A stretch of DNA of 26,300 nt from Nitrospirota bacterium (GCA_029858565.1 JAOUEV010000048.1:1-26300), one strand, 5' to 3'. Shown: positions 9,456 to 26,121, counted from the stretch's first letter. Notes: generated by a model from the sequence alone, not told the origin. Translations and numbers: made by a program.

Positions 9456-9578
9456 GGTATCCCCCCCCAGCTACAGTTTTATGTTCGCGTATGCTTCGGC
9501 TCGTCTTCCCTGAGAGTGGGCATTATGAATCAGCAGGAAGCCTGTCGAGAAGACTCATTTTTCATGATGATGAGGGCG

Positions 9579-9608
9579 AGCGTAGCAATAAACAATCGTT
9601 TTTGTCAA
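9579..9608 (-). promoter_or_regulatory. Putative sigma70 promoter for the 9455 gene
   Basis: TTGACA (9608-9603), 18-nt spacer, extended -10 TGcTACGCT (TACGCT at 9584-9579). Confidence 0.45.
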
Positions 9609-9676
9609 TCTGAAAGAACGAGCAATTAATCCGGATAATCAACCAGATATGAGCAGGTCATCCGTTTCAATACCGC

Positions 9677-9699
9677 AAAAAACAGGATTTTTCATCCTG
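9677..9699 (-). terminator. Putative intrinsic terminator for the large-protein/lipoprotein transcript
   Basis: Minus strand CAGGAT-gaaaa-ATCCTG stem-loop followed by T6. Confidence 0.45.
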
Positions 9700-9715
9700 C
9701 CTTCTGCTGTATTTT

Positions 9716-9884
9716 ATCCTAAAAACGGCAGTTGAAAACACAGATTAACACAGATGAAAAGCAAATTCGGACACTTACCTCGCTTAAGACATTCACCAAA
9801 AGGGTGAATCCTGTTTTCATTTGAAGGTCTTGCATTATCCGTATTTATCAGTGTTCATCTGTGGTTAACTGCTTTTTCCAGGTT
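9716..9884. repeat. About 170-bp imperfect inverted-repeat element (REP/MITE-like) built from 10-bp ACACAGAT units
   Basis: Left arm ATCCTAAAAACGGCAGTTGAAAACACAGATTAACACAGATGAA; right arm reverse complement AACCTGGAAAAAGCAGTTAACCACAGATGAACACTGATAAATACGGAT; internal hairpin ATTCACC-aaaag-GGTGAAT. Confidence 0.75.
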
Positions 9885-9933
9885 TATCTGCTGGTCGTTC
9901 GTGATTCGGAACCGTCGGTAGCTGTTCTGCCTT

Positions 9934-10467
9934 CTACTGCAGCTCCACGGTCATGCCCGGCGTGAGCGACGAGGTTATCGTGGTGGTGCTGTTTGTCGAG
10001 ACAATGATGCCGACGGCCTGGAACGATTCTGCTAAGACTGTGAAATCAGCGTCAGCTGGGCTCGTTCCGTTCAGGATGCAATTCACCGTGGCGAACTCGC
10101 CGGTCCCGAAGCCGCCGGCGGACGAGCTCGTAATCATGACCCGTACCGTGGCAGGGATCGTTGTTGTAGCCGCGGTGTACGTCCCGAAGGCTATGGCGCC
10201 GGTTGCCGTTCCGCTGGCGGTCACCACGCCGGAATCCGTCACCTGGTTCGTTGCCGCCACGGTCACGCCTGCAGGAAGCGCGAGCGTGATATCTATTGCG
10301 CCGATGCCGTCCACGCCCGCAGGCAGGGTGCCGGACGTTGCCAGGGTGACAATCGCGGTGGTCGGCGCTGTGTTGCCGCCGCCGCCGCCGCCCCCTCCAC
10401 CCCCGCCGCAAGCAGCAGCCATCGTGAGTGACATCACACATATCAGCAACATGCGCATTCTATTCAT
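9934..10467 (-). CDS. Lipoprotein with poly-Gly linker and a beta-rich, possibly cohesin-like domain
   Basis: Lipobox-like AAAC (Cys20), Gly11, then alternating beta pattern (IGAIDITLALPAGVTV...VRVMI...GFGTGEFATVNC); GGAGG SD. The cohesin assignment is inference. Confidence 0.8.
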   Translation of the reverse strand: MNRMRMLLICVMSLTMAAACGGGGGGGGGGGNTAPTTAIVTLATSGTLPAGVDGIGAIDITLALPAGVTVAATNQVTDSGVVTASGTATGAIAFGTYTAATTTIPATVRVMITSSSAGGFGTGEFATVNCILNGTSPADADFTVLAESFQAVGIIVSTNSTTTITSSLTPGMTVELQ

Positions 10468-10569
10468 TGATAACCTCCGAAGACCTCTTTCCGGCCGATC
10501 CGCGCTTTGAAGAACTGCTGGAACGTGCCGGGTTTCTGTTGGTTTTATCAGTCTTGACTCCGCACTCCC

Positions 10570-13500
10570 CTACCACAGTCCCACGGCCTTGCGCAGGATC
10601 ACGAGCACGTCGCTGATGTCGATCCTGCCGTCCGGCGACGGCTGACCATTCACGAGCGGCGCCACGTCGGCACGAAGCATCTCCACGACGGTAGCGGTAT
10701 CAAGGCCTGCAACCACCCTCAGGATCTTCAGGGCGTCTCCTACCGAGACCGTGCCGTCAGCATCCAGATCGCCGAGCCGGGCATAGATGATGTTCCGGAC
10801 CACGGTGCTGCTGTTGCCGGCCTCGTCCGTGGCAGTGACCGTTATGGCGTAGATCCCCTCCGCGGGGAAGGTGACCTCCTGGGTAAAGCTTCCGGATGCG
10901 ATTGCCGGCGTGTAGGTCGACGTGCCGTCGGTGATCACGACCATTGCCGTGGTGAGGCTGTCGGTCACGGTGCCGCTGATCGTGACGGTCGCGGAGGTGA
11001 CGATTCTGTCCTGATCAGGCATAGTGACTGCCAGGCCGGGCGCAATGCTGTCATAGGTGACCGTACGCTTGAGCGTGTTCGTGTTGCCCGCAAGGTCAGT
11101 TGCCGTGATATCGATGGTGTTGATGCCGGAAACAAGGTTCACCGTGACGGTGAAGCTGTTCCCGGCCATGGATGCCAGTTGCGGGCTGTCGCTGTTCAGC
11201 ACTACCGAGACCGAGGCGTTCTCATCCACCGTGCCGGTGATGGTCGAGACCAGTTGGTTCGTGATGCTGTTGTCAGCAGGCATCGTGATCACCAGGCCCG
11301 GCGCTGCCTGGTCCAAGATGATCGTGCGGCTGTCGGTTGTGGTATTTCCGGCAAGATCGGTCGCAACGGATATGATCGTGTTGTTGCCGGTCACGAGCGT
11401 CACCACATGGCTGAAGCTGCTGTCCCCCTGGACCGTGACCGTCTGGCCGCTGATCACGAGGCTCTCGACCCCACTGCTGTCCGTCACCGTGCCGAAGATG
11501 TTCAGCGTCTGGTTGTTCGTTGTCGCGCCGTCGGAAAGGGTGGAGAGAGAGAGACCGGGTGCTGCCGTGTCCACAGTCCAGGTCGCGGTCGTGGACGCTG
11601 CCTGAGACTGCCAATTCCCGGCGCTGTCCTTTCCGATGACCGAGACCGCATGGCTGCCGTCAGACAATCCTGTAAGAGCTATTGCCGTGGCAACCGGGAT
11701 CTCGGCTGAGTAGCTTCCGCTGTCCAGCTTATACTGGTATGCGGTTACATCGGTCCCGCCGACCGTGAGCGTAGCGCTCGTCTGGTTTGTATCGCTTCCC
11801 GGAGCCCCGGTGATCGTTGCAGTCGGTGCGATGGTGTCGATCGACCAGGCATAGGTCGCCGGCGTGTTGTCCGTATTTCCTGCCTGGTCTGTCGCCTTAA
11901 CCTGGAAGGTATGGCCGCCTTCGGCAAGGATCGAGTACGTTGCCGGGCTGCTGCAGTTTATGAATGAGCCGGAATCGATGCTGCAGACAAAGGTCGACCC
12001 TGTTTCATCGGCGCTGAAGTTGAATAGTGCAGATACCGTGTTCGACAGAACTGCCGGGCTGCTGGTGATCGTAGTATCCGGAGCAGCAGTATCGAGCACG
12101 ATCTCCGCCGACGCGGTTGCGCTGTTCCCGGCAAGGTCGGCTGCCGTGGCAGTGATACTGTTCGTTCCTTCGCTCAGGCCGGTGATCTCGACGGTCCAAG
12201 AGGTCGCCGTGGGATAGGACACTGGAGCAACGGTCGCAGTTGAACATTCGACCGATACCGTTGCCCCTTCTTCCATGGTTCCGCTTGCGGTCTGGCCGGT
12301 TGCATTCGTGGGCGAGGAGACCGGACTGATCGTGACCGCTGGCGCGATGGTGTCGTAAATGATGTTCCGTACCGCTGTGGCGGCGTTGTCCGCCTGGTCG
12401 GTTGCCGTGGCGGTGACCGTATTCTGGCCCACGGACAGATTGGTTATGTCAACCTGCCACGTTGTTGCCGTGGGATAGCTCACCGCTTTAACAGACGCCG
12501 TGGGGCAGGTTACGACCACCGTGACGCCGCTGCTGTCGTCCATGGTGCCACCCACAATGATAGCTGCCTGGTTGGTGCTCGTATCCTGGCCGGGCGAGGT
12601 GATCGCAAGCGACGGGCTGATATTGTCAAAGGTGACCGTCCGCTTGGCAGTCGAGGTGTTCCCTGCCAGGTCCGTTGCCGTGACATCGATGGTGTTGATG
12701 CCGGAAACAAGGTTCACCGTGGCGGTGAAGCTGTTCCCGGCCATGGACGCCAGTTGCGGGCTGTCGCTGTTCAGCACTACCGAGACCGAGGCGTTCTCAT
12801 CCACCGTGCCGGTGATGGTCGAGACGAGCTGGTTCGTGATGCTGTTGTCAGCAGGCATCGTGATCACCAGGCCCGGCGCTGCCTGGTCCAGGGTGATCGT
12901 GCGGCTATCGGTTGTGGTATTTCCGGCCAGGTCGGTCGCAACAGACGTAATCGTATTACTGCCGGTCACGAGCGTCACCACATGGCTGAAACTGTTGTCT
13001 CCCTGGACAGTGACCGTAGTTCCACTGACCACGAGGCTCTGGATCCCGCCGCTGTCCGTCACCGTGCCGTTGATGTTCAGCGTCTGGTTGTTCGTTGTCG
13101 CGCCGTCGGAAAGGGTTGAGACTACGAGCGTCGGCGGCGTTGTGTCATCCTGAGCAAAACTCGCACTGATCGTATGGTCCGTTGTCACTGTGGTGAATGT
13201 ATAAGCAGACACCACGCCGATTGACGATCCGTCAACCAGCACGTCAGCCACATGGTAGCCCGTATCCGGCGTGATCGTGAAGGCCTGATCTGCTCCATGA
13301 TTCACCAGCACCGAGCCTGAGGGTGTGACTCCTCCGCCGGAGCCGGCAGACGCGGTGATGGTGTAGGTGTTTATTGCAAAGGATGCCTCGACCGTGTGGT
13401 TTTCCGTAATATTCGAGATAGTGTAGGTTCCGTTCGAAACCAGACCGATCACACTGATGCTGTTATCTATCAGGCTTGCAAGGTGGTACCCGCTGTCTGG

Positions 13501-16500
13501 CACGATCGAACATCCCGGGCTTTCGCCGTAGTTTACCGTTGACGTGCAGGAGATGGTCCCGTTGCCGCCTGTTATGCCGCTCACGTTAAAGCTCTTGAGT
13601 GTAAATGTCGCGGTGCAGGACGTGGTGCCATCCATCGTCACTACGCCGTCGCTGCAGTCCGGATCTCCTGTCCAGCCGCTAAAGGCCATGCTCACATCTC
13701 CCGGCAGAGGCGTCAGGGTAACGACCGTGCCCTGCGCATAGACCTCGCTGCAGTCGCCGCCGCAGTCGATGCCCGCCGGGCTGCTCGTGACCGAGCCGAT
13801 ACCAGTGATGGAGACGCTGAGCTGGTGGGTGATCTGGACAAAGCTCGCCGATACTCCGCAGTCGGTCGTGAGGTTCGTAATGGTGTAAGTGTTGCCCGCG
13901 AGACTCCCGCCGCAACCCTCGACCGTGTCGATCAGGTAGCCGGGATAGGGCGTCACCGAGCAGCTCGCACTGCCGCCATCATTGACCATGGTCGGCGCGC
14001 ACTCGAGGAAGCCGTTCGGGCCCGCGGACGTCGTGATGCGGTGCATGCTGTTCAGCAGGATGCTGACGTTGTTACTGTTAAAGTTCGCTACGGCAAGGTC
14101 TACCTTCCCGTCGTTGTTGAGGTCGCCTGCCGCGACCGAACGCGGTCCTGTGCCCACCGGGTAGTTCACCGCTGTCTGGAACGTGCCGTCGCCATTCCCG
14201 GTCAGCACGGAGACCGTATTGCTGAAGCTGTTCGCCACGGCAAGGTCGATCGTCCCATCGCCGTTGAAGTCCCCGGTGACGACGGAATACGGTTCCGTCC
14301 CGGTCGGGTAGCTCACGGCGGAATGGAACATCCCGGGAACTGCTCCATTGTTGTTCAACAGGACCGATACGTCATCGCTATCGAAGTTCGCCACCACGAG
14401 ATCGGCATAACCGTCGCCGTTGAAATCACCCGTGGCGACAGCGTAGGGAGTCGTTCCAACTGAGACGATCGGTCCCCCTGGGAAGGTTCCATCTCCATTC
14501 CCATTCCCGAACAGGATAGAGACGTTATCACTGCCGCTGTTCGCGACGGCAAGGTCCGCCTTTCCATCGCCGTTGAAGTCGTTGGAAGTGACGGCAAGCG
14601 GCGCGGCCCCCACGTTATACGTATTTACCGTCTGGAACGTGGTGTCCCCGTTGCTGAGAAAAACAGCAACCCGGTTGTTGCCGCTGTCCGTCACGGCAAT
14701 GTCCGCATACCCGTCCCCGTTGAAATTACCGGATGCCACCGAAGACGCACGAGCAGAGCCGCTCCCTGCATTGAGGTTCTTGTTTGATGTGAAGTCGCCA
14801 TTGTTATTGAAACGCACGGTCACGGTATTGGTTCCGGAATTCGCCGCCGCGATGTCCAACTCCCCGTCCCCGTCGAAATCTCCAGTGGCCACAGAGCGGG
14901 GATTCGTACTGGCGGCATATGAGGAAGGCGGCAAGAATGTTCCAGTCCCATTGCTGAACAGGAGCGAGAAATCACTGCTGTTGTAATTCGCCGCAACAAG
15001 GTCCCAGCTGCCATCCGCGTCGAGGCTGCCGACGGCCACGGAGGAGGGCCCGCTGCCCGCGGCATAGGGCACGGCGGCGCTGAAGCTCCCCGCGCCCAGC
15101 GGTTCGTTGCTTCCTGCCGGCACCATGACGATATCGACCGTCGTAGTGGCGGGGGGGGTTACTGTCACGCCGGAGACCAGCTGGTTCGCATACATAGGAT
15201 CACCAAACACGGCCACACTGTAATCGCTCCTGGCCGTGAGGTCTCCGACAGTGTAACTTCCTGCTCCGTCGGTCGTCGTGCTTCCGATAACGCTGCCGTT
15301 GCCGTCAAGCACCTGCACAGAGCAACTAGAAATCGCCGAGCCGGTGGCCTGCGAGGTCACCGTACCGGAGATGGCGCCGAAGACACCCGTTCCGCTCAAA
15401 GGAATGTCAAAATCAGGAGTATCCGGGTCATCGGATGTGATTCGCAGGGTCGCGTTCTTGGCACCGGCCGATGTCGGCGCAAAGGTAGCAAGGATATTAC
15501 AGTTTGTTCCCGGAGTAAGTGTGAACGGCGCATTGGGACAGGGATTGGTCGAGCTGGGAAGAGTTCCGAACTCGCCAGCATTGGGGCCGATGACCGCTAT
15601 TGCGGATATGTGAAGATCCACGCCCCCTATATTGCTGACAACTCTCTCCATTGATATTGAATTGCCAACACCAACATCATCGAAATTAGCAGAGTTCGGT
15701 ATAACGTTAATGTCCATACATGCACCGATCTCGATGAAAATATACGCATATCCCGTACCGCCATCCGCATCTGTGACCGTTATCCAGAGCCCATCACGCC
15801 CGCAGTAATTCAACGGAGTATAGGTTACCAAGCCGTTTTCATCCACGGACGCTGTGCCATGCAATGGTGGGGCCAGTATGGCATAGCTAAACACCGTATC
15901 AAGAGGATCTGGATCGTTCGGAATCACCTGAGTTGTCGCGGAAGTATTGTATCTCATCTGGATCGGAGCCACCGATGGAACCGGTTCACGATTCACGCGG
16001 CGTGGGAACGGCTCGCGGACAAGACCCAATTGACCGAAATCGTTGCGCCCCCACGCCCAGACAGTGCCATCCGTCTTACGCGCGACCGTGTGATCGAAAC
16101 CTCCCGCAATCGCCGTCACATCCGAAAGATCGTTCACCTGCACAGGGGTGAACCTATCAACCAGCGTCCCGTCACCTAACTGGCCGTAGTAGTTCCTTCC
16201 CCAGGCCCAGACAGTGCCGTCAACCTTGAGTGCGACCGTGTGATAACCACCTGCCGCGATCGCTACAACATTGTTCAAGCCGCTCACCTGGACGGGCCTG
16301 GAACTATTTATGGTTCCCCCATCGCCCAACTGGCCATAGTAGTTCCCTCCCCAGGCCCAGACTGTACCGTCGCTCTTTACCGCCACCGTATGCTCGGCTC
16401 CGGCTGCAACGGCCACCACCGTTCCGGTTAGCCCGGTCACTTGGACCGGGGTCGTTTTACCAATGTTGGATCCGTCACCAAGCTGGCCAACTCCATTACT

Positions 16501-18186
16501 CCCCCATGCCCAGACCGTTTCGTCCGCTTGGATCATACCGCCGATTGCGACCGAGTGATAGTATCCTGCCGCGATCGTCGCAAACCCTAGACCTTTCAAC
16601 AAGACTGGGGTTGAACTATCATTGAGTGTACTGTCACCTAATTGGCCGCTGTCGTTACTCCCCCATGTGTAGACCCCACCGTTATTCCTGGAGATTGTAT
16701 GATTATAGCCTGCCGCGATCTGCCACGCGGTTAAATCATATCCATCAACCATTACCCGGACGGGGACTGCGCTGTCATTAGAAATAAAGCCGGCACCTAA
16801 CTGTCCATGAGAGTTTCTCCCCCACGCCCAGACCGTTTCGTCCGCCTTAATCGCGACCGTGTGATAACCACCTGCCGCAATCGCTGCAACTTGTGTAAAA
16901 TTGAAAACCGGTTCAGGAATGGGTTTAATAGGTTCATTAAGTCCGTCGCAAAAATCATGCCCCAATTGGCAGGAATCATTTGCCCCCCATGTCCAAGCCG
17001 TGCCATCCCCCCTGAGAGCGACCGAGTGATAGTATCCTGCCGCGATCGCCGTTATACCCGAAATATCGACAACCCGCCTAGGCCCTTGCGTAAAAAGCGG
17101 CAGGCCGTAACCCAGCTGGCCGGAGCCGTTACTCCCCCATGTCCAGACTGTGCCGTCTGTTTTGACAGCGACCGTGTAACCGCTACCTGCCGCAATCGCC
17201 GTCATATCCGAAAGATCGTTCACCTGCACGGGGGTGAACTTATTATCCTGAGTCCCGTCACCCAACTGGCCATAAGCGTTATCCCCCCAGGCCCAGACCG
17301 TACAGTCTGTCTTGACCGCGACCGTGTGACTGCTTCCTGCCGCGATCGTAGAAACATTTTCCAGCCCGGCAGAGACAGGGGATGAACTGTCCGTGGTCGT
17401 CCCATCACCAAGCTGACCGTAATTATTTCGTCCGCTGGTCTTTATGGTTCCATCGGCCATCAGAAAGACCGTATGATATGTGCCGGCTGCCGCCGCTGTT
17501 GCATTACCGATATTGACCACCTGCGTCGGGATAGAACGCCCGAACGCATCTGCGATACCGAGCTCCCCGTATACATTGGAGCCCCAGGCCCAAGCAGTTC
17601 CATCCGTCTTGATAGCAACAGAATGAGAGCCATTTGCAGCGATAGAAATTACGTTGCCGAGAAACAGGACCTGCACAGGTGTTAAACTGTCTGTCGTGCT
17701 ATTGTTGCCAAGCTGTCCTATATAATTATTACCCCACGCCCACACTGTCCCATCTGTTTTGAGAGCAAGCGAATGCATGTCGCCTGCAGCAACCGCTGCC
17801 ACACTGGTCAAACCGCTCACCTGAACTGGCGTGGAACTGCTTGTGGTCTCGCCATCACCCAGCTGACCGCTGTTATTATTACCCCATGCCCAGACCGTAC
17901 CATCCGATTTGACCACAACGGTGTGATCACCGCCTGCCGCTATCGCCGATGCAGTAAGACCGCTCACAAGTACTGGCGAATCCTTGTCAATGTTAGACCC
18001 GTCCCCGAGCTGCCCAACGTCATTGCGTCCCCATGTCCAGACGGTGCCGTCCGTCTTGAGCGCGACAGTATGACTATCGCCTGCCACGACTTGCTGTACA
18101 TCCGTGATGGACACAGCATGCGCGCTTCCGGCTCCAACGGCCATGATGGAAATGAACGCTGCGATGGAAATGAGACGCCTGATCAT
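10570..18186 (-). CDS. Giant secreted surface protein (2538 aa): signal peptide, two RCC1 propellers, Ig/cadherin-like, ASH/choice-of-anchor D-like, carboxypeptidase-regulatory-like, FG-GAP/VCBS propeller, InlB-B-like repeats, multiple Ig-like domains, C-terminal dockerin-like domain
   Basis: About 14 repeats of AG..HTVA.K.DGTVWAWG.N..GQLG; GDFNGDG..DLAVAN repeats; ATDLAGN Ig repeats; terminal GDLDADGTVSVGDALKILR...ADVAP...PDGRIDISDVLVILR; GGGAGG SD. Confidence 0.9.
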   Translation of the reverse strand: MIRRLISIAAFISIMAVGAGSAHAVSITDVQQVVAGDSHTVALKTDGTVWTWGRNDVGQLGDGSNIDKDSPVLVSGLTASAIAAGGDHTVVVKSDGTVWAWGNNNSGQLGDGETTSSSTPVQVSGLTSVAAVAAGDMHSLALKTDGTVWAWGNNYIGQLGNNSTTDSLTPVQVLFLGNVISIAANGSHSVAIKTDGTAWAWGSNVYGELGIADAFGRSIPTQVVNIGNATAAAAGTYHTVFLMADGTIKTSGRNNYGQLGDGTTTDSSSPVSAGLENVSTIAAGSSHTVAVKTDCTVWAWGDNAYGQLGDGTQDNKFTPVQVNDLSDMTAIAAGSGYTVAVKTDGTVWTWGSNGSGQLGYGLPLFTQGPRRVVDISGITAIAAGYYHSVALRGDGTAWTWGANDSCQLGHDFCDGLNEPIKPIPEPVFNFTQVAAIAAGGYHTVAIKADETVWAWGRNSHGQLGAGFISNDSAVPVRVMVDGYDLTAWQIAAGYNHTISRNNGGVYTWGSNDSGQLGDSTLNDSSTPVLLKGLGFATIAAGYYHSVAIGGMIQADETVWAWGSNGVGQLGDGSNIGKTTPVQVTGLTGTVVAVAAGAEHTVAVKSDGTVWAWGGNYYGQLGDGGTINSSRPVQVSGLNNVVAIAAGGYHTVALKVDGTVWAWGRNYYGQLGDGTLVDRFTPVQVNDLSDVTAIAGGFDHTVARKTDGTVWAWGRNDFGQLGLVREPFPRRVNREPVPSVAPIQMRYNTSATTQVIPNDPDPLDTVFSYAILAPPLHGTASVDENGLVTYTPLNYCGRDGLWITVTDADGGTGYAYIFIEIGACMDINVIPNSANFDDVGVGNSISMERVVSNIGGVDLHISAIAVIGPNAGEFGTLPSSTNPCPNAPFTLTPGTNCNILATFAPTSAGAKNATLRITSDDPDTPDFDIPLSGTGVFGAISGTVTSQATGSAISSCSVQVLDGNGSVIGSTTTDGAGSYTVGDLTARSDYSVAVFGDPMYANQLVSGVTVTPPATTTVDIVMVPAGSNEPLGAGSFSAAVPYAAGSGPSSVAVGSLDADGSWDLVAANYNSSDFSLLFSNGTGTFLPPSSYAASTNPRSVATGDFDGDGELDIAAANSGTNTVTVRFNNNGDFTSNKNLNAGSGSARASSVASGNFNGDGYADIAVTDSGNNRVAVFLSNGDTTFQTVNTYNVGAAPLAVTSNDFNGDGKADLAVANSGSDNVSILFGNGNGDGTFPGGPIVSVGTTPYAVATGDFNGDGYADLVVANFDSDDVSVLLNNNGAVPGMFHSAVSYPTGTEPYSVVTGDFNGDGTIDLAVANSFSNTVSVLTGNGDGTFQTAVNYPVGTGPRSVAAGDLNNDGKVDLAVANFNSNNVSILLNSMHRITTSAGPNGFLECAPTMVNDGGSASCSVTPYPGYLIDTVEGCGGSLAGNTYTITNLTTDCGVSASFVQITHQLSVSITGIGSVTSSPAGIDCGGDCSEVYAQGTVVTLTPLPGDVSMAFSGWTGDPDCSDGVVTMDGTTSCTATFTLKSFNVSGITGGNGTISCTSTVNYGESPGCSIVPDSGYHLASLIDNSISVIGLVSNGTYTISNITENHTVEASFAINTYTITASAGSGGGVTPSGSVLVNHGADQAFTITPDTGYHVADVLVDGSSIGVVSAYTFTTVTTDHTISASFAQDDTTPPTLVVSTLSDGATTNNQTLNINGTVTDSGGIQSLVVSGTTVTVQGDNSFSHVVTLVTGSNTITSVATDLAGNTTTDSRTITLDQAAPGLVITMPADNSITNQLVSTITGTVDENASVSVVLNSDSPQLASMAGNSFTATVNLVSGINTIDVTATDLAGNTSTAKRTVTFDNISPSLAITSPGQDTSTNQAAIIVGGTMDDSSGVTVVVTCPTASVKAVSYPTATTWQVDITNLSVGQNTVTATATDQADNAATAVRNIIYDTIAPAVTISPVSSPTNATGQTASGTMEEGATVSVECSTATVAPVSYPTATSWTVEITGLSEGTNSITATAADLAGNSATASAEIVLDTAAPDTTITSSPAVLSNTVSALFNFSADETGSTFVCSIDSGSFINCSSPATYSILAEGGHTFQVKATDQAGNTDNTPATYAWSIDTIAPTATITGAPGSDTNQTSATLTVGGTDVTAYQYKLDSGSYSAEIPVATAIALTGLSDGSHAVSVIGKDSAGNWQSQAASTTATWTVDTAAPGLSLSTLSDGATTNNQTLNIFGTVTDSSGVESLVISGQTVTVQGDSSFSHVVTLVTGNNTIISVATDLAGNTTTDSRTIILDQAAPGLVITMPADNSITNQLVSTITGTVDENASVSVVLNSDSPQLASMAGNSFTVTVNLVSGINTIDITATDLAGNTNTLKRTVTYDSIAPGLAVTMPDQDRIVTSATVTISGTVTDSLTTAMVVITDGTSTYTPAIASGSFTQEVTFPAEGIYAITVTATDEAGNSSTVVRNIIYARLGDLDADGTVSVGDALKILRVVAGLDTATVVEMLRADVAPLVNGQPSPDGRIDISDVLVILRKAVGLW
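11075..11541. repeat. Intragenic duplication of a two-Ig unit; partner at about 12650..13116 (offset 1575 nt)
   Basis: Long identical runs such as ATCGATGGTGTTGATGCCGGAAACAAGGTTCACCGTG at 11110 and 12685; the protein repeats STLSDGATTNNQTLNI...ATDLAGNT. Confidence 0.9.
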
Positions 18187-18533
18187 TCTGCCCTCCCTGG
18201 CAACATTGGGTCTGGTGAAGTATGGATAATTGTTCTTTTCACTGTGGTAACCAGTGATCTTTTACTTTTCGTTCAGGCCGGCGGCAATCCTGTCGGACCT
18301 GCCAGTATCTCCTCTCTGCCAGCCCGCTAGACGCATAACCACCCATTTTATAACAACGACAAAAGGCCGACAGCTATGCAGATTCATGCCTTCCCCCAAC
18401 CTTTTCTCCCGGAAAACTGCGCTTCAGACAAATCGTCCAGATATTATCGAACAAGCGCCATCGACAACTGGCGCTGTTTCTATCAATATAGTCATTCAAG
18501 AGTTTTTTGAATGTATCCCTTTTTATTCCTCGA

Positions 18534-18722
18534 TCATGCTCCGCGTTTTTTCCGCTTATTGGACTTCTCAGCATCGCGATCTTTCGATCGAAGAACTTCC
18601 CAGAGCTCGGTATAGGTGCCGAAGGGCTTTTGCTCCCCTGCTTCGACAGATTCGATGATACCGTTCATTTTCCGGGGATCATCGTTGTCACGGCGATAGA
18701 TCCGAATGATGTAGTTTTCCAC
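18534..18722 (-). CDS. Small 62-aa hypothetical protein
   Basis: GTG 18722 with GGGGAG SD; MENYIIRIYRRDNDDPRKMNGIIESVEAGEQKPFGTYTELWEVL plus a basic tail. From memory it resembles small proteins found beside BTAD regulators (unverified). Confidence 0.7.
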   Translation of the reverse strand: MENYIIRIYRRDNDDPRKMNGIIESVEAGEQKPFGTYTELWEVLRSKDRDAEKSNKRKKRGA

Positions 18723-18799
18723 AATAGCTCCCCGGCAAAACCGCATGGCCCGTGCCGGACGGGTCTCTGCCTTCTGCGGGAGAGCCTACAGCATGAGCG

Positions 18800-18816
18800 G
18801 ATACAGGAGAGATACA
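18800..18816 (-). promoter_or_regulatory. Candidate regulator binding site TGTATC-N5-TGTATC (11-bp period)
   Basis: GATACA at 18800-18805 and 18811-18816, about 80 nt upstream of the 62-aa gene. 11-bp-period direct repeats are typical of SARP/OmpR-type winged-helix sites. Confidence 0.45.
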
Positions 18817-18956
18817 AATAGAAATTTTTATTGAGGATGTTGCAGATTAATTAAATATTATGAAGAATCAAGTGGATACGGACATGGGCAGGAAGGGATA
18901 AGTCGGATACATTCTGCAGTAAAGGGTGAAGGAACGGCATTTTACAGCTTTTACTT

Positions 18957-20222
18957 CTAGAAATCCCGGCCAAAGCTCAGGCCAAGGTACTGGCAGGTAT
19001 TATCATATTCGCCGCTGTTCATGCTGTTCTGTACTGACCGCTTTTCGTACAGCCCGTAATTGTAGAACAGGTCCGTGCGGAATTCATCGCTCCGGTACCC
19101 GGCGCCGACGCTGAAATTATGCTGGTCCGCGTCGGGGTTGCCCGGCTCGAGCGTATGGTCGGGAACGGAGGTCTTGATAAAAGCATAGCCCGTGCGCAGC
19201 GACACTTTATCGCTCAGCTGATAGGCCAGCCCAATCTTGTACTGCAGGGAGTCCTTCCAGTCCAGGGGCGTGGAACCGTCCACGAGGCCCGCTGCGGGCA
19301 CTTCCTGCAATATGTCCATGTCCATGCGCGCGAAGGTAGACCAGCGAACGAGCTCGACGTCAAGATCGACGACAACCTGCGGAACGGGCAGATAGGCCAT
19401 GCCAACGCTCCAGATGTCGGGAAAGACGCTCCTGGTCCGGACAGCGGTGGCGTAGCTTGCCGAGCCGAACAGGGGCTGCAGCGGCGGCGCAATGTTCTCG
19501 ATGGTCATGTCCCCTTGGTAGTCGATCGGGATACGGCTCCGGTAGGCAAAACCGACGCGGAGATCGTCGCGAAGCGCAATGAGCGCGCCGAGGTTATATC
19601 CCCAGCCGTCACCGTCTGCTTCCAGCGTCGACCGGCCGTCGGGAGCGCCGAGGCTGGATTGATCGATCATGCGCTCCATCGTGACCGCTGCCCGCATGTA
19701 ATCGATGCCTGCCGCAACCGATACCGACGGCGTCATCCGCCAGGCGAGCGTCGGATTCACTGAAAAGGTCCCGATGCTGCTCTCGGTGGAGAGATACCTT
19801 GTCTGTCCGGTCCTGCTCCAGGTCCTGCCGCCGATCCCGAAAGGGGAGTACAGTCCCACGCCGAAGACGATGTCCGGATTCCCGCTGTCAGAGACAAGGT
19901 AGAGATGGCCGGGAAAAAAGACACGGGATTCGGTCGTTTCGCTCCCCCCGGACGGACTGGTGTAGGTCGTGGACGGCGCCAGGGCCGTGATCCCGCCATA
20001 CACGCTCGTTCCGCGCATCTGGGTGAGGCCGCCGGGATTGAACAGGATCGCGGAAGGATCGTCCGCAACAGCCACGAAGGCCGTGCCCATGCCCGCGGCA
20101 CCTGCGCCATGGACCGGTCCGCCTGCAACTGCTGCTCCTGGGAACAGCGCAAGGCAGAGCGCGGCGATCAAGAAGATTCGACGGATTCCGGCTCGCTTTA
20201 ACCATTCACTATACTTACCCAC
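18957..20222 (-). CDS. OmpP1/FadL-family outer-membrane beta-barrel
   Basis: Signal peptide; hatch motif GMGTAFVAVADDPSAILFNPGGL; GWGYNLGAL and LRTGY strands; terminal Phe; GTG start overlaps the regulator stop by 8 nt. Confidence 0.9.
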   Translation of the reverse strand: MGKYSEWLKRAGIRRIFLIAALCLALFPGAAVAGGPVHGAGAAGMGTAFVAVADDPSAILFNPGGLTQMRGTSVYGGITALAPSTTYTSPSGGSETTESRVFFPGHLYLVSDSGNPDIVFGVGLYSPFGIGGRTWSRTGQTRYLSTESSIGTFSVNPTLAWRMTPSVSVAAGIDYMRAAVTMERMIDQSSLGAPDGRSTLEADGDGWGYNLGALIALRDDLRVGFAYRSRIPIDYQGDMTIENIAPPLQPLFGSASYATAVRTRSVFPDIWSVGMAYLPVPQVVVDLDVELVRWSTFARMDMDILQEVPAAGLVDGSTPLDWKDSLQYKIGLAYQLSDKVSLRTGYAFIKTSVPDHTLEPGNPDADQHNFSVGAGYRSDEFRTDLFYNYGLYEKRSVQNSMNSGEYDNTCQYLGLSFGRDF

Positions 20223-23200
20223 CGGATGTTACCTCCCTGAAAATCGCCTTTGTGTCCGCCGAAGGTTCGAGCGCAAGCTTTGCCCGGAGAACTGATTCGC
20301 ACCGCTGGTAGGTCCGCGCGGCATCCGCTTGTCTGCCGATACGGCCATAGCAACTTATGAGCCGCTGATAGAACAGCTCTTCCAGATCGTCGATGTCAAG
20401 GCCCCGGAGATAGCAGCCAATGGCCCCATCCCAGTCCTGTTCCGCTTCCCGCGATTCGGCCATGAAGCGCACGGCCCGCAGGTATCTGCTCCGAAGCCGC
20501 TCGCGCGGCGAGATCGTCCAGGGCTCTTCCCGGTCCTGGTCAAGGAAATGGCCCTGATACAGGGAAAGCGCTTTTTCCACCATGGCGCGGGCCTCCTTCT
20601 GTGTCACGGCCGCGTCGCTGCCGACAAGCGAATCACGGGGAAGGAAATCGACTCCCGCCTCGTCCAGCATCTGCTCGAACGCCCAGGCATCGCACCAGAA
20701 GTATCGCGGATCAAGGGTGATTTTCCCTTCCTGGAACCTGACTGCCTCATCGCTCCCGATCATGTGCCTGAGCCGGTGGAGCAGACTTTTGAGGGCAAGA
20801 TGCGCCGCGTCGCCCTCGGCATCAGGCCAGAGCGCATCGGACAGCTTCTCCTTTGCCACGTCCTCTCCTCCCAGTGCAATCAGCATCTTCAGAAGATCGA
20901 GCGGCCGCTTCTGGACCTTGCCGGAAAAAACCACCGGTTTTCCGTCCACGAACAGGGCAAACCCTCCGAACACGCGGACCTTCACTTTCCACGGCCAGGC
21001 TTCGCCAGCCAATACCGGTTTCGGCGGGAGAATGGCGCGGTCGAGGATCAGCTGCCGGACAAAGTCTGTTTCGATCCCTGCCTCAAAGGCCTTTGCGCAG
21101 AGCTGTGACATCATATTTTGACGCCATAATCCGCAAGTATTAAAGCCTCGCTGTTTCGCGAGCTCGAACGCCGCGGCCAGGTGGCGGGCGCCCTCGCTGT
21201 CATCCGCCCTGGCATAGGCACGATAGGCTTCGAAGAGCCTGCAGTCGCATTCATAAAAACTATTACTGTATATGCGTATCATGGCGCGCGTCTTATCAAG
21301 GTACTCCTGCGCTTTCTCGGCATTGCCGAGTTCATGATGAATGTGAGCTGCGGTGAGATAAATACTGAAAAGAGACGGTGTTCGGTAAAGGTTCTGCATC
21401 AGACTTTCGGATCGGTTGATATGATCCAGACCGAGATCGAGTTCGCTCCGTTCGAGGGCATCGTAGGCCGCGAGAAAATAATATAACGACTGGTCCCAGG
21501 CCGGTCTCGTTCCGATCATGGCTTCCATGGCGTTCAGGGCGGAACGGGAGGCGGAATAATCATGGGAACTCGTGTGCACCCATGCCCGGTACCCGAGGAA
21601 AATGAAGTCGAAGATGTGTACGCCTGAGCGGTCTGCGTGATCAAGACCCTCGGCCACAAGCGCCAGACAGCGCTTTGCATCATGCCGCATGAGGTTGGTG
21701 TACATGACTTTGCACATGTAGAAACATGTAATTGCAAAGTCGTTCGCGCTCTTCCGGCCCGCGAGCCCCTCGAGTTCGGACAAATACTGCATCGCTCCGA
21801 TGACGTCTCCCCGCAGCATCTGGCGGAACGATGCGTGAAAGACCGTATTACAGCGCAGATTAATGTCAGACGACAAACTTGTCGCCGCCAGGGCGCGGGA
21901 CATCCAGTGGTCGAAATCCGGGGAGTCCGGCCGCCACATGCACAAGGACCGGAACATGCTCCCTGAGACGCGCGCTTCAATCTCGCTCGGCGGGATCGCT
22001 CCGAAACGAGTCTCCAGGAGAGGCAGTTCATCGATCAGGTCATCCAGCTTGCGCAGGTCATCGAAACCGTACAGGACCGCTTCGGTCATCCCGGCCCAGG
22101 CAAGAAACATCCCTGCTGGATCATTGGCCCGGGAAAATCCTTCCGCTGCCTTCTCAAGCAGCCTGACGCTCTCGGCCGGCGCGAACGCGAACTGACAGGT
22201 GCTGCTCCAGAACAGCAGCCAGGGATTCGACTCGACAACTGCCTGGGGCAAGAGGGCAAGCCAGTGCGCAAGCGTGGTCTGGCGGCCTTGCTGCAGGAGT
22301 GTTTGCGCATGGGCCGTCGCCAGTCCGGACAGCGCCTGCCAGTCCTCTGCTTCCGCATACAGTTCAGCGGCTTGTTCCGGCTGGCCGGCATCGGAAAGAA
22401 GCGTCGCTGCAATATCGCGCAAGTCCCGCAACGCCTGTGGCGGGAGCGTTTCTTTGAGCTTTTCCAGAAGAAAGGCCCGGAACAGGGGATGGTACTGGTA
22501 CATCCGCATGGGCCCCAGCGTTTCCACGGTGAAAAAATTGTTGCGCACGAGACTTCTCAGAATACTGCGAGCTTTCTCGTTGCCGGTCATTTTCTCGGCA
22601 TCGGTCCCCGTAAAATCCTTCAGGATCGAGGTCTTGAGCATCAACTCCTGCTCAACGCCTTTTGCCTTCCGAAACACTTCGTTCGCGAAATAACCGAACG
22701 CGCCGTCCGGCACGACCCGCTCCGAGCCGCCTGCCCCCGATGTTGTCAGGAGCACGATTCCGGCGATCCAGCCCTGCGAGCTTTCCATAAGCGCCACGGA
22801 CCGCTTGCGGTCCATGTGCTTCGATGCCAGGTACGCGCCTGTTTCCGCGTTCGTGAACCGGAGATCATCCCACCCCAGCCGCGCCATCCGTCCGTTGGCC
22901 TGAAGCCGGGCAAATGCCTCCGGAGGCTCGGTGCGGCTCAGCACGATCACCCCGATCCCCGGCGGCAGGTTCGAAAGGCCGGTGCAGATCACCTCGTGAA
23001 AACCGGCTCTCGGCAGGGGCCCTGCCCCGGCGCCCGCATCCTGATAGTTGTCCAGCACCAGAACAGACGGCGTCTTCATCCGCATACAGAGTTCCTCAAA
23101 GAATGTTCGGGTGAAGGCAGGAACGCCCATCAGATACTCCGGCGTGAGCTTCGGCATTGGTTTCCGCTTGCGGGGACTGACTTTCTGCGCGGCAAGCCCG

Positions 23201-23457
23201 AGATAATGGAAGAAGGTTGACGGATCGGCATCTGACTCATCTACTTGATACCAGAGGCAGGAACGTTCGCGGTGTTCGATATAACTGCTGATCAGCGTGG
23301 TCTTGCCGGACCCGGCAGGAGCGGATACCCAGACGAGCGGCCGCTTCTGCTCCTTGTCGAGCAGGTCGAACAGCCGCTTACGGAGAAGAGCGCCGGACGC
23401 AGAAGGACGGCGTATCTTTGTCGAACCACCCGGATGGTAAGAGGAATCCCTTGACAT
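20215..23457 (-). CDS. MalT-like STAND ATPase transcriptional regulator with C-terminal winged-helix and BTAD domains
   Basis: TKIRRP...R.RL, Walker A APAGSGKTT, Walker B LVLDNYQ, GWIAG, YQYHPLF, TPR-like middle, then VRVFGGFAL...LWPD...LHRLR...CDAWAF...LYQGHFL...L.IDDLEE.FYQRL...LEPS. Start ATG 23457 preferred; the ORF is open to 23496. Confidence 0.9.
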   Translation of the reverse strand: MSRDSSYHPGGSTKIRRPSASGALLRKRLFDLLDKEQKRPLVWVSAPAGSGKTTLISSYIEHRERSCLWYQVDESDADPSTFFHYLGLAAQKVSPRKRKPMPKLTPEYLMGVPAFTRTFFEELCMRMKTPSVLVLDNYQDAGAGAGPLPRAGFHEVICTGLSNLPPGIGVIVLSRTEPPEAFARLQANGRMARLGWDDLRFTNAETGAYLASKHMDRKRSVALMESSQGWIAGIVLLTTSGAGGSERVVPDGAFGYFANEVFRKAKGVEQELMLKTSILKDFTGTDAEKMTGNEKARSILRSLVRNNFFTVETLGPMRMYQYHPLFRAFLLEKLKETLPPQALRDLRDIAATLLSDAGQPEQAAELYAEAEDWQALSGLATAHAQTLLQQGRQTTLAHWLALLPQAVVESNPWLLFWSSTCQFAFAPAESVRLLEKAAEGFSRANDPAGMFLAWAGMTEAVLYGFDDLRKLDDLIDELPLLETRFGAIPPSEIEARVSGSMFRSLCMWRPDSPDFDHWMSRALAATSLSSDINLRCNTVFHASFRQMLRGDVIGAMQYLSELEGLAGRKSANDFAITCFYMCKVMYTNLMRHDAKRCLALVAEGLDHADRSGVHIFDFIFLGYRAWVHTSSHDYSASRSALNAMEAMIGTRPAWDQSLYYFLAAYDALERSELDLGLDHINRSESLMQNLYRTPSLFSIYLTAAHIHHELGNAEKAQEYLDKTRAMIRIYSNSFYECDCRLFEAYRAYARADDSEGARHLAAAFELAKQRGFNTCGLWRQNMMSQLCAKAFEAGIETDFVRQLILDRAILPPKPVLAGEAWPWKVKVRVFGGFALFVDGKPVVFSGKVQKRPLDLLKMLIALGGEDVAKEKLSDALWPDAEGDAAHLALKSLLHRLRHMIGSDEAVRFQEGKITLDPRYFWCDAWAFEQMLDEAGVDFLPRDSLVGSDAAVTQKEARAMVEKALSLYQGHFLDQDREEPWTISPRERLRSRYLRAVRFMAESREAEQDWDGAIGCYLRGLDIDDLEELFYQRLISCYGRIGRQADAARTYQRCESVLRAKLALEPSADTKAIFREVTSGG

Positions 23458-24139
23458 GGATCGGCAGCCGCTCCTGGACGAAATACTTGTCAGCAAATCT
23501 TTTGTCGCTTATAGCACGTATTGATGGAGCAATGGAGCACCTGGTCTTTCCGCCCTCCTCAGGAACCTGGGGCTCTGATGGAGAGGAGATAATTTCCTTA
23601 AGCATTAAAAAAACCTGCGCTTCGCTACGGATGAACCGCATCGATGCCTGCCATTCGTCGGCCCTGCCGGCACACCCTTTTACTCCACAGAGGTACATCA
23701 GCCTTTATTCTTACAATAAAAAGACCGCGAGCGGCATGGTAATCAACCCATGCCTTTCTGCCTGACCTCTCCTGAAAGAACCTTCCTCCGAGCACGTCCG
23801 TCCGCACTTCCTAAGGTCTCTTAATACCTGAGATATGCTATGAAAAAATAAACAGATTTCTGAAAATTAGGAACTTTGTCGAAAAACATTCATACTCTAC
23901 CAAAAAGCTGGCACTTGTTCAAACGGAAATAAAACTTTATTCCTATACGGAATATAGATAGTACAAAGTTGGTTCCGATGTCAAGCAACTTAATATTTAG
24001 GAACTAACAAACAACAAGTTAACTAGCAAGCGTGAAATAAATTGGGGAGTTAAAAAGGGAGGAGATGATATCGATTTATTCCAAACAGGTGTGCATGATC
24101 GGATTTATTACCACAGGATACGGCTATAGAAGAAAATGC

Positions 24140-25216
24140 TTATTGAGCTGCTTCGCGCAGAACGGCTCCGGCGATCGAGCCGAGGGAGAGGACGCGGTCC
24201 ACGGCGCCGAGCTCGATGGCCTTTTTCGGCATGCCGAAGACCACGCAGGTTTCCTCGTCCTGGGCAATGGTCGTCGCCCCAGCCTCCCGCATCTCGAGCA
24301 TTCCCTTGGCACCGTCATCACCCATGCCGGTCATGATGACGCCGACGGCGTTCGCTCCTGCATACCGGGCAGCGGACCGGAATAGGACATCCACCGACGG
24401 CCGGTGACGGCTGACCAGCGGACCATCCTTGATCTCGACGAAATACCGGGCTCCGCTTCTCTTCAGAAGAAGATGGTGATTCCCCGGAGCGATCAGCGCC
24501 CGTCCGCGGATCACGCTGTCGTTCGTTTCAGCCTCTTTCACGGAAATGTTGCAGATGCTGTCGAGACGCTGGGCAAACGCCTTGGTGAAGTTCTCCGGCA
24601 TGTGCTGCACGATAACGATGCCCGGAGAATCGAGCGGCAGCCCCACGAGAAAATCCTTGAGCGCTTCGGTCCCGCCGGTCGATGCGCCGACAACGACCAC
24701 TTTTTCTGTCGTCTTCAGCATCGCATCCTGGCCGATCCTGGCCTTGGCGAGGATCGCGTCTGCTGTGAGCTTGGGCGGTACATCAGGATGAACGAAAGCC
24801 ATCCGCTTCAGCCGCACCGATGCCGCGGCCTTGACCGCGTCGCAGATCCTGATCTTTGCCTCCTCCAGGAACTGCTTTGCGCCCAGTCGCGGTTTTAGGA
24901 TGATCTCGACCGCGCCGTATTCCAATGCGCGCAATGCCGTTTCTGAACCGCTCTCGGCGAGGCTCGAACAGATAACCACCGGGATAGGATGCTGCGACAT
25001 GATCTTCTGCAGGAATGTGATCCCATCCATGCGCGGCATCTCGACGTCGAGCATGATCACATCAGGAACCTCGTGGCGGATGTGGTCCGCGGCGATGAAT
25101 GGGTCCGATGCCTTTGCCATGACCTCAATATCCGGATCAGATGTCAGGATGTCCGCAAGGGTTTGCCGGACCACCGCTGAATCATCGACGATCAGAACCC
25201 GTATCTTGTTTCCCAT
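24140..25216 (-). CDS. cheB: Chemotaxis response regulator protein-glutamate methylesterase
   Basis: Receiver domain (VDDS, LDVEMP) plus catalytic motifs GASTGG, VQHMP, HRPSVD and GMGDDG. Confidence 0.97.
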
Positions 25217-25230
25217 GAGTCTCTCACTTG

Positions 25231-26121
25231 CTAGGATGTCTTTCGATATACCGTCGACACAAGCCGCCGCAGTGGCAGATCGAATCCGTGTATGCTTTCC
25301 GAATGGCCGAGGAACAGATGCCCTTCCGGCTTCAGCGTACGGCAGAACCGTGTGATCAATTGCTCCTGTGTCTGGCGGTCGAAGTAAATGATCACATTCC
25401 GGCAGAAAATCACATCGAGCGGCTCGGCGAAGGTAAATGCTTCCTCCATGAGGTTTAGCCGCTGGAACTGCACGGTGCTTCTCAGTGCCGGCACAATTCG
25501 CACCTTGCTTTGTGATCGGTCCCTGCTGCGCAGCAAATATTTCTGCTTCAACGCTATCGGCACATCAGCGAGGCGCTCCGCGTCATAAATGGCATCCTTG
25601 GCGCGGTTCAGAACCCGCATGGACAGGTCCGTGGCCAGGATCGTGAAGCGGAATCCGCTGTTCTTTTCCGCGAACTCGGACAGCACCATGGCAAGAGTGT
25701 ACGGCTCTTCACCGGTTGAGCAGCCAGCGCTCCATATGAGGAATGGACGGTCTCTTTGCCCGTTCCGCTCCCGTTCTTCCACATACTCCGGCAGCACATG
25801 GTCGGTCAGGTACTGAAAATGACCGGGCTCGCGAAAGAAGTCGGTTTTGTTCGTGGTGACCGCGTCAAGCATATGGACCAATTCTTTATGCTCGCCGTCA
25901 CCGATCACGAATTCATAATATTCTGCAAATGTCTTGATGCCGAGTGTGCGCAGCCGTTTCTGCAGCCTCGCCTCAAGCATCACTTTTTTGCTCAACGGCA
26001 TCTTGATGCCGCACTGATTGCCGATGAACTCGCTGAAGCGGCCGAATTCCGACTGTGTCATGGGCCTTGCCCAAGTCTGAAATCCTGTCTGGTCCATGCA
26101 TTCCATCAGGCCGCGACGCAC
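25231..26121 (-). CDS. cheR: Chemotaxis protein methyltransferase (start may be ATG 26097)
   Basis: [31 protein letters not shown] and LFLGHSE motifs. Confidence 0.96.

Follow-up and report, generated by a model that had tools for sequence, protein, structure and literature searches.

MalT of Escherichia coli is activated by ligand and ATP, and the outer-membrane channel genes todX and tbuX are encoded beside regulatory systems. Cohesin and dockerin modules outside cellulosomes were reportedly surveyed by Peer et al. in 2009. Both domains have also been described in syntrophic sulfate reducers, but only in expressed putative adhesins (PMC10553843). SARP-family regulators are described as exclusive to actinomycetes (PMC7040171). 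The sites that they recognize follow a rule, direct repeats 11 or 22 bp apart that adjoin the -10 element, and in the afs box AfsR acts on two such repeats of 11 bp to activate the neighboring gene for the 63-aa protein AfsS (PMC10936776). Here we analyze a 26,300-nt stretch of DNA from a Nitrospirota bacterium (GCA_029858565.1 JAOUEV010000048.1:1-26300, "the window"), which is the entire contig C125 of a 3.9 Mb assembly. On its minus strand, five consecutive co-oriented open reading frames (ORFs) encode, in this order, a large SARP-type regulator, a FadL-type outer-membrane barrel, a small protein, a giant protein with a dockerin-like tail, and a lipoprotein.

Two modules, each conserved without the other, meet at this locus; the five genes are not a single machine. 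Module A is the regulator and the small protein, sometimes accompanied by a FadL-type channel, and module B is the dockerin-tailed cargo with its lipoprotein. A sequence-only reading of the window had proposed a single five-gene surface-display system under the control of the regulator. The ORF map of the minus strand contains all five genes that it listed, and the ORFs scanned (short and antisense ORFs left out) include no part of a type I secretion system, a TpsB transporter or an autotransporter, again as it had stated. The unity of the system did not survive comparison with other genomes: at 35 dockerin-cohesin loci, the regulator is found at two, the small gene at one and the barrel, looked for within 20 kb, at none, and the pair of regulator and small gene recurs beside unrelated cargo. 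The neighborhood survey proposed along with that reading did find regulator, barrel and small gene linked elsewhere, but the full five-gene set in no other genome searched. The most interesting part of the locus lies beyond the focus of the sequence-only reading: a switch of the SARP type, spread through Gram-negative lineages, whose target is a conserved small protein.

Table 1. Coordinates of the features of the locus, counted from the first nucleotide of the window
Feature	Position	Strand	Description
Large SARP-type regulator	20215-23457 (longest ORF from TTG 23496)	-	1080-1093 aa; BTAD and MalT-like matches
FadL/TodX-family barrel, 14-strand type	18957-20222	-	421 aa; PF03349
Candidate regulator box	18799-18819	-	Two 11-bp direct repeats, ATTTGTATCTC TCCTGTATCC
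-10-like hexamer	18783-18788	-	TAGGCT, 10 nt after the window's box
Small protein	18534-18722	-	62 aa, GTG start; first gene behind the box
Inverted repeat	18446-18483	.	Arms of 15 nt with 80% complementarity; some 50 nt past the small-gene stop
Giant cargo protein	10570-18186	-	2538 aa, Sec-type N-terminus
Dockerin-like tail of giant protein	10573-10788	-	C-terminal
Lipoprotein, probable anchor	9934-10467	-	177 aa; signal peptide, lipobox Cys20, Gly11 linker
Cohesin-fold domain of lipoprotein	9937-10368	-	AlphaFold2 model and fold search

The regulator combines an N-terminal MalT-like STAND NTPase and helical sensor with a C-terminal module of a putative winged helix-turn-helix (wHTH) and BTAD, encoded at about 20230-20988. 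Residues 27-450 align to residues 6-435 of the MalT model NF003420 (5.4e-52), and the score of 176.9 bits falls short of the 537 bits set for a MalT equivalog; the C-terminus carries the putative wHTH and BTAD instead of the LuxR-type HTH. By analogy with MalT, activation of the regulator by ligand and ATP is expected. BTAD (PF03704) matches residues 965-1089 at 2.3e-20 and 73.9 bits against a cut-off of 22.1, and Trans_reg_C, the OmpR-type wHTH, matches weakly (17.7 bits against a cut-off of 26.2). For the C-terminal 261 aa the best match is EmbR (2fez), a member of the SARP family, at E 5.9e-4 in an alignment of 245 residues (10-254).

A pattern scan for the small gene, with one genome per species, gave 80 loci from metagenome-assembled genomes labeled Nitrospirota, Gammaproteobacteria (Thiogranum, Thiohalobacter, Acidiferrobacterales), Thermodesulfobacteriota/Deltaproteobacteria, Burkholderiales, Binatia and Myxococcota. 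We found a regulator homolog at 65 of the 80, and in 60 of these 65, by our reading of the loci, it shares the strand of the small gene and precedes it, in most cases with 100-250 nt between the end of the regulator and the small gene. Full-length regulators (at least 1000 aa) are encoded at 35 small-gene loci. At 17 loci the regulator is short, 277-348 aa, and aligns only to residues of about 823-1091, the putative wHTH and BTAD part; the short entry of an 18th locus, L057, comes from a full-length gene that is split. The long and short forms mirror the dichotomy of "large" and "small" SARPs. Regulator and small protein apparently constitute a widespread, seemingly undescribed switch, and the literature that we searched (subscription journals and supplements lay outside it) yielded no description of the small-protein family, of the link between barrel and regulator, or of the lipoprotein cohesin.

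Translation of the small gene from its GTG codon gives MENYIIRIYRR, which is the N-terminus of the family, and GGGGAG lies 7 nt upstream. The protein matches no Pfam or NCBIfam family. Its AlphaFold2 model is predicted to be beta-beta-beta-alpha, with a confidence score (pLDDT) of about 90 for residues 1-45, and ends in a disordered tail rich in Lys and Arg. A fold search with this model (VIA) returned nothing at Z of 5 or above; the best match, an AP2 DNA-binding domain at Z 4.0, is a lead only. A homolog search limited by its word index gave two proteins only, but a profile of the three paralogs and one match retrieved 2178 cluster representatives when E<=1e-3 was allowed, of which 486 remain at 1e-10. 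Ten clusters that we looked up bear the source name "hypothetical protein" or none, and the ESM Atlas returned only "hypothetical protein" clusters, at 0.88. The small protein has no signal peptide; it is therefore cytoplasmic and cannot be a structural part of surface display. In some metagenomic relatives a PilZ domain is fused to its C-terminus, at 33.9 bits in P0071 and at 22.0-22.7 bits, around the cut-off of 22.5, in P0109, P0151 and P0184. These fusions hint at a connection to cyclic di-GMP (c-di-GMP).

The genes behind the small gene vary. They encode fn3, Big_5, NHL, PD40, LRR with cohesin, Lcl_C or beta-helix proteins and many proteins without a family, and 43 of the 60 co-directional ORFs directly downstream, within 500 nt, at the 80 loci look exported by a crude signal-peptide rule. 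In one sublineage, a 146-aa protein without a Pfam family (start MIK.GP.P.DMREMS) directly follows the small gene (L020:7213-7653, L027:8189-8629, L200, L202, L208, L209 and L229). At L061:10662-15108, from a Thermodesulfobacteriota single-cell genome, the cargo behind the small gene has LRR, MopE-type metal-binding motifs and a cohesin that Pfam detects.

A repeat box precedes the small gene in much of the family. In a test that presupposes no motif, an 11-nt shift gives 8 or more identical bases out of 9 in 47 of 81 upstream regions (one of the 47, L053, is an artefact from a run of N), compared to 3-9 of 81 at shifts of 8-10, 12-14, 21 and 22 and 1.6 of 81 in shuffles. The consensus across the family is ATCTGTAAGnn ATCTGTAAGT, and the box mostly lies 46-133 nt before the start codon, with L083 at 150 nt. 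In 30 of 63 strong boxes, the distance from the box to the start of a -10-like hexamer is exactly 10 nt, the modal spacing; the box therefore spans roughly -43 to -23. Family-wide, this is the arrangement given for SARP promoters, with repeats 11 or 22 bp apart by the -10 element.

Two further clusters, C88 and C14, came from tblastn of the five proteins against the window's own genome combined with ORF maps, and a fourth regulator paralog is encoded on C115. The order in C88 is regulator, IS200-like transposase with HigBA, small gene, a 2398-aa giant and lipoprotein, with no barrel. This giant has DUF5122, Big_13 and fn3 domains and the same dockerin tail, the lipoprotein is 45% identical to that of the window, and the small gene has a box of 15.1 bits. 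The insertion in C88 (L003:5642-7457) comprises an IS200-like tyrosine transposase (Y1_Tnp) and HigB/HigA between regulator and small gene. C14 consists of a regulator, several Lcl_C lipoproteins, the small gene and a 727-aa Big_5 lipoprotein, without barrel, dockerin or cohesin-type lipoprotein. The two best boxes genome-wide, identical 21-mers of 26.1 bits at C14:100837 and C14:103712 (L004 about 4838 and 7713), lie in this cluster before genes for Lcl_C-domain lipoproteins. Their placement suggests that the C14 regulator paralog may drive cargo promoters directly.

The barrel belongs to the Toluene_X/FadL family (PF03349), which it matches over residues 36-401 of 421 at 7.3e-52 and 176.7 bits against a cut-off of 29.7. 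Its closest solved relatives by sequence are FadL (1e-10), TbuX (4e-8) and TodX (1e-7), and it fails the test for the FadL equivalog NF007988 (67.2 against 585 bits). Barrel and regulator are probably co-transcribed because the barrel start overlaps the regulator stop by 8 nt. Orthologs are rare, occurring in four genomes of the window's taxonomic family (at least 46% identity) and in 6 of 401 genomes of a phylum sample that includes the window's own. Among nine distinct genome contexts, a duplicated locus being counted once, the regulator is adjacent in eight and the small gene is present too in seven; in the ninth, the contig ends within the context. A second FadL type with 31-37% identity, at 24 loci, has neither regulator nor small gene adjoining.

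Metagenomes extend this linkage. A scan with the single barrel sequence found no relative, but an alignment of eight orthologs worked as a query and retrieved 44 loci at 42-67% identity, some of them near-duplicates (e.g. L208/L209 and L216/L217), of which 30 have the regulator, 19 the small gene and 26 the box. Where at least 1.5 kb was available on both sides, 12 of 13 loci have the regulator and 10 the small gene. Two gene orders occur, regulator-barrel-box-small gene and barrel-regulator-box-small gene, and the barrel is upstream of the box in both. L183, from another family of the phylum, repeats the first order with a box of 19.4 bits, followed by a 3450-aa RCC1 giant. At L184:1549-4630, genes for a PDZ-histidine kinase and a LuxR-type response regulator, and not the small gene, come after the barrel ortholog; the upstream side of this locus is cut by the contig end. 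In an IQ-TREE phylogeny of 44 full-length regulators, the seven barrel-linked rows need seven state changes. A single acquisition for all FadL-linked regulators was rejected (approximately unbiased, AU, test, p = 5e-5, for a group named after the first tree was seen). The barrel is facultative and, on linkage and family knowledge, plausibly an accessory of the sensing side, with import of a hydrophobic cue as its simplest role.

The Pfam domains of the giant protein include RCC1 propellers, Ig-like domains, an FG-GAP propeller and a Big_13/Glucodextran_B array, among others. Its gene contains twelve RCC1 repeat units with a 150-nt period (16019-18099) and an internal 300-nt duplication, with copies at 10957-11256 and 12532-12831 that are 80% identical and 1575 nt apart. 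The tail had been called a dockerin in the sequence-only reading, and an alignment of 23 such tails bears out the duplicated pattern: two Ca-loop/helix segments, GDLxGDGxVDxxDALKALR and DVAPL..PDGKIDIGDVVVILRK, plainly repeat GDxDxDG...D-helix, and the second Ca loop carries an insertion, DVAPLVNGxPxPDGKID. The ten top matches of a tail profile among PDB sequences are dockerins without exception, although E is only 0.2-0.5. Elsewhere in the genome, C115 encodes a GspD secretin with a score above the cut-off, so the absence of an exporter from the window is no puzzle, and the giant probably crosses the outer membrane through the type II secretion system (T2SS) of the genome. A search with the SprA model found no match in the genome, but the control likewise matched in no genome, which makes this search uninformative on the type IX system.

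The lipoprotein matches no Pfam family at E<=0.01 and no NCBIfam family. Its AlphaFold2 model, built from a 46-sequence alignment, has a pLDDT of 89, and in a structural scan of 48,161 chains (VIA) the top 22 matches are all cohesins, at Z 9.6-7.0, with a root-mean-square deviation of about 3 A over 109-131 residues; the next fold reaches Z 5.8. As modeled, the domain is a nine-strand beta-sandwich of the cohesin fold, the fold expected of the tether that had been proposed for the dockerin tail. The shared part of its 55 relatives has no Pfam domain, and a few relatives are fused to dockerin, fn3 or InlB-B-repeat modules. The lipoprotein profile matches in 24 of the 63 other genomes of the window's family, with up to eight matches per genome, and the other 337 genomes of the phylum sample gave one weak match.

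Cargo and lipoprotein are paired in the genome. At 30 places with 1.5 kb of flank, the two of the window's own genome included, 23 have a co-directional dockerin-tailed ORF right before the lipoprotein. Among 35 loci of relatives taken with wider flanks, largely the same places, a dockerin-tailed gene lies immediately upstream of the lipoprotein gene in 28; at one of the 28, L148, it is a 36-aa fragment only, and a contig end truncates one of the seven loci that lack it. The cargo frames range from 182 to 3155 aa from stop to stop. The window's genome has exactly two dockerin tails and two lipoproteins, and they are paired. At L123:35-17683, three consecutive dockerin-tailed genes (frames of 182, 2004 and 3155 aa) precede a 326-aa lipoprotein with two cohesin-like domains, an arrangement that looks scaffoldin-like. 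The cohesin-dockerin kind of pairing is already known, and the lipoprotein form invisible to Pfam appears to be undescribed.

We favor a composite of the two modules, at a probability of roughly 0.55, in which a SARP-type switch with the barrel as its cue gate controls a T2SS-exported giant that is tethered to a cohesin lipoprotein. The cytoplasmic MalT-like STAND NTPase would carry the SARP module, OmpR-type wHTH and BTAD, at its C-terminus. Once activated, the regulator would bind the two 11-bp repeats of the 22-bp box, which overlaps the promoter of the small gene at its -35 region, and recruit RNA polymerase, like AfsR at afsS. The resulting transcript would encode the basic beta3-alpha protein of 62 aa, and read-through would add the cargo genes that follow. 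The FadL-type barrel, which would share a transcript with the regulator on the upstream side of the box, would most likely let a hydrophobic cue through the outer membrane, and this cue would reach the STAND sensor directly or indirectly. The 2538-aa propeller/Ig protein would leave the cytoplasm by the Sec route and then probably cross the outer membrane by the T2SS. Its C-terminal Ca-loop dockerin would dock into the cohesin-fold domain of the neighboring outer-membrane lipoprotein and so hold the giant on the cell. The sequence-only reading, with its regulated, tethered adhesin and a barrel possibly on the input side, had guessed this logic in part.

Several observations weigh against this composite. 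On the promoter side, the window's own box is the weakest accepted site, only 8.7 bits against a null of 8.0, and its TAGGCT matches TATAAT at 3 of 6 positions only. A position weight matrix places 64 of the 81 upstream regions above the 99% shuffle null, but it was trained on the regions that it scores, and the period-11 test alone escapes this circularity. Between the small gene and the giant gene lie 348 nt that contain a hairpin, and no box of 8 bits or more precedes the giant gene, so that read-through has to be assumed for the cargo to be controlled. The inverted repeat in this gap is possibly a partial terminator ahead of the giant gene, and neither it nor the intergenic region is conserved in L183 or the C88 paralog. 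On the sensing side, the barrel is missing from 75 of the 80 small-gene loci and from both paralogous clusters of its own genome, and barrel-linked regulators have barrel-less sisters at SH-aLRT support of 100 (L041/L043, L027/L020 and L077/L026). The barrel would open the outer membrane only, and a route for the cue from there to the cytoplasmic sensor has to be assumed.

The tether is open to similar objections. The dockerin call is softer than the sequence-only reading had claimed, with a PF00404 (Dockerin_1) score for the last 76 aa, scanned alone, of 21.9 bits where 22.9 are required, and a Pfam scan of the whole giant does not list a dockerin. Foldseek ranks cohesins top for the lipoprotein model, but at E 0.0095 or worse, and the cohesin goes undetected by sequence, with no match to Pfam PF00963 and no PDB cohesin found by the lipoprotein-family profile. 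Default Lol sorting leaves lipoproteins on the periplasmic face of the outer membrane, and surface exposure of this one is for that reason an assumption.

The sequence-only reading had offered a second role for the barrel, in helping to expose the giant or the lipoprotein on the surface. The barrel would then be an export or surface-exposure device in the manner of PorV or Slam, and the five genes would be one dedicated display machine. The window encodes no other outer-membrane exporter, and the barrel has weak similarity to FilD and to PorV/PorQ (NF033709, PorV_fam), the latter at 41.8 bits but under the cut-off of 90. However, the T2SS secretin is present elsewhere in the genome, the 35 dockerin-cohesin loci lack the barrel within 20 kb, and C88 brings together regulator, small gene, dockerin giant and lipoprotein without it. 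The barrel, moreover, always stands upstream of the box with the regulator and not with the cargo, and the cargo beside barrel-bearing cassettes varies, often without a dockerin or a lipoprotein partner. We consider an exporter very unlikely; the position of the barrel in the regulator's transcription unit is the one expected of a sensing-side part. It is less far-fetched, though still doubtful, that the barrel is an output of the operon, a channel for hydrophobic nutrients that is co-regulated with surface proteins and has no signaling role. FadL, TodX and TbuX, its nearest solved relatives, are substrate channels, and sister loci dispense with the barrel. Yet no catabolic gene for hydrophobic compounds adjoins the annotated barrel-bearing loci, the barrel is never found behind the box, where regulated outputs sit, and the linkage is specific to one rare FadL subfamily (the 6 of 401 genomes above).

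For module B, the cohesin-fold lipoprotein could be a periplasmic holder, chaperone or plug for the dockerin tail, serving before secretion or for periplasmic retention, rather than a surface anchor. The default Lol sorting already mentioned would place it there, no surface-exposure factor was identified, and the gene pairing suits a holder equally well. What makes this role unlikely in our judgment is the cargo, with RCC1, FG-GAP, Ig, fn3 and Lcl_C domains typical of extracellular adhesins, together with the scaffoldin-like L123, where three dockerin genes accompany a two-cohesin lipoprotein, and the cohesin-dockerin adhesins of sulfate reducers, reported as expressed and putative (PMC10553843). 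That unrelated genes merely came to lie side by side on a short contig is hardly credible: the whole set indeed recurs in no other genome searched, but the pairwise linkages (65 of 80 for regulator and small gene, 12 of 13 for barrel and regulator, 28 of 35 for dockerin and lipoprotein) are far beyond chance, and L183 repeats regulator, barrel, box and small gene with its RCC1 giant in another family of the phylum.

Other parts of the window showed no tie to the locus. A 724-aa membrane protein with at least seven ankyrin repeats (2712-4886, minus strand) and a CheB/CheR pair at the right end (24140-26121, minus strand) are unlinked to the cluster in the other loci inspected. Rfam at gathering thresholds gave no match in 9500-24200, and a scan for consensus promoters and terminators found a number of sites not above that in shuffles.

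The two-module composite has implications beyond this contig. SARPs are treated as actinomycete controllers of antibiotic production, and here the same promoter logic is seen in Nitrospirota, Gammaproteobacteria and relatives of sulfate reducers. If the composite is correct, the box would be predictable enough for finding regulons in uncultured bacteria, the barrel would be a candidate link from an outer-membrane channel for hydrophobic molecules to a cytoplasmic STAND switch, and a compact lipoprotein-cohesin anchor would explain how giant dockerin-tailed adhesins hold on to a Gram-negative cell, possibly offering a display scaffold. A bolder extension is tentative. It would hold that a widespread undescribed Gram-negative cassette uses SARP-type STAND activators to switch on basic beta3-alpha effectors of about 60 aa (more than 2000 clusters, sometimes fused to PilZ), which might act on nucleic acid, RNA polymerase or a c-di-GMP-linked partner, and that this pair remodels the surface proteome, with a FadL channel admitting the cue in one lineage and the lipoprotein-cohesin/dockerin pair as a new tether.

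Compared with cohesin-dockerin anchoring in cellulosomal scaffoldins and non-cellulosomal pairs, module B has the same elements, a cohesin-fold anchor, a duplicated Ca-loop dockerin on the cargo and adjacent genes, although neither module passes Pfam thresholds here. Cellulosomal scaffoldins are anchored by S-layer homology domains or sortase, whereas the anchor here is a small Gly-linker lipoprotein in a bacterium with an outer membrane, and its cargo consists of propeller/Ig adhesins, not enzymes. The barrel resembles FadL, TodX and TbuX as a Pfam Toluene_X member with these channels as its nearest solved relatives, and its gene, like todX and tbuX, adjoins a regulatory system. Its subfamily, however, goes with a regulator of the SARP type and with cargo of surface proteins, not with a catabolic operon. 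With MalT the regulator shares an aligned N-terminal 424 residues (5.4e-52), and it differs in scoring far under the equivalog cut-off and in replacing the LuxR-type HTH with a putative wHTH and BTAD.

The closest parallel to module A is the AfsR-AfsS pair of Streptomyces, in which AfsR, a large SARP, has NOD and TPR domains. In both, BTAD, with a wHTH that is putative here, is joined to a STAND NTPase and a helical sensor, and the likeness extends to the existence of "large" and "small" forms and to a 22-bp box of two 11-bp repeats over the -35 region (PMC10936776). The first target is in each case the neighboring gene for a protein of about 60 aa (AfsS has 63 aa), a likeness in position and size only. 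The domain order, however, is reversed, with the NTPase N-terminal and the SARP module C-terminal here, and the NTPase is MalT-like by best match, not NB-ARC. The -10 hexamer lies 10 nt after the 21-mer, as against the 8 bp from the repeat quoted for SARP promoters. In contrast to AfsR and other SARPs, module A occurs in Gram-negative hosts such as Nitrospirota, Gammaproteobacteria and Thermodesulfobacteriota, and the outputs are exported surface proteins rather than the antibiotic clusters that AfsR controls.

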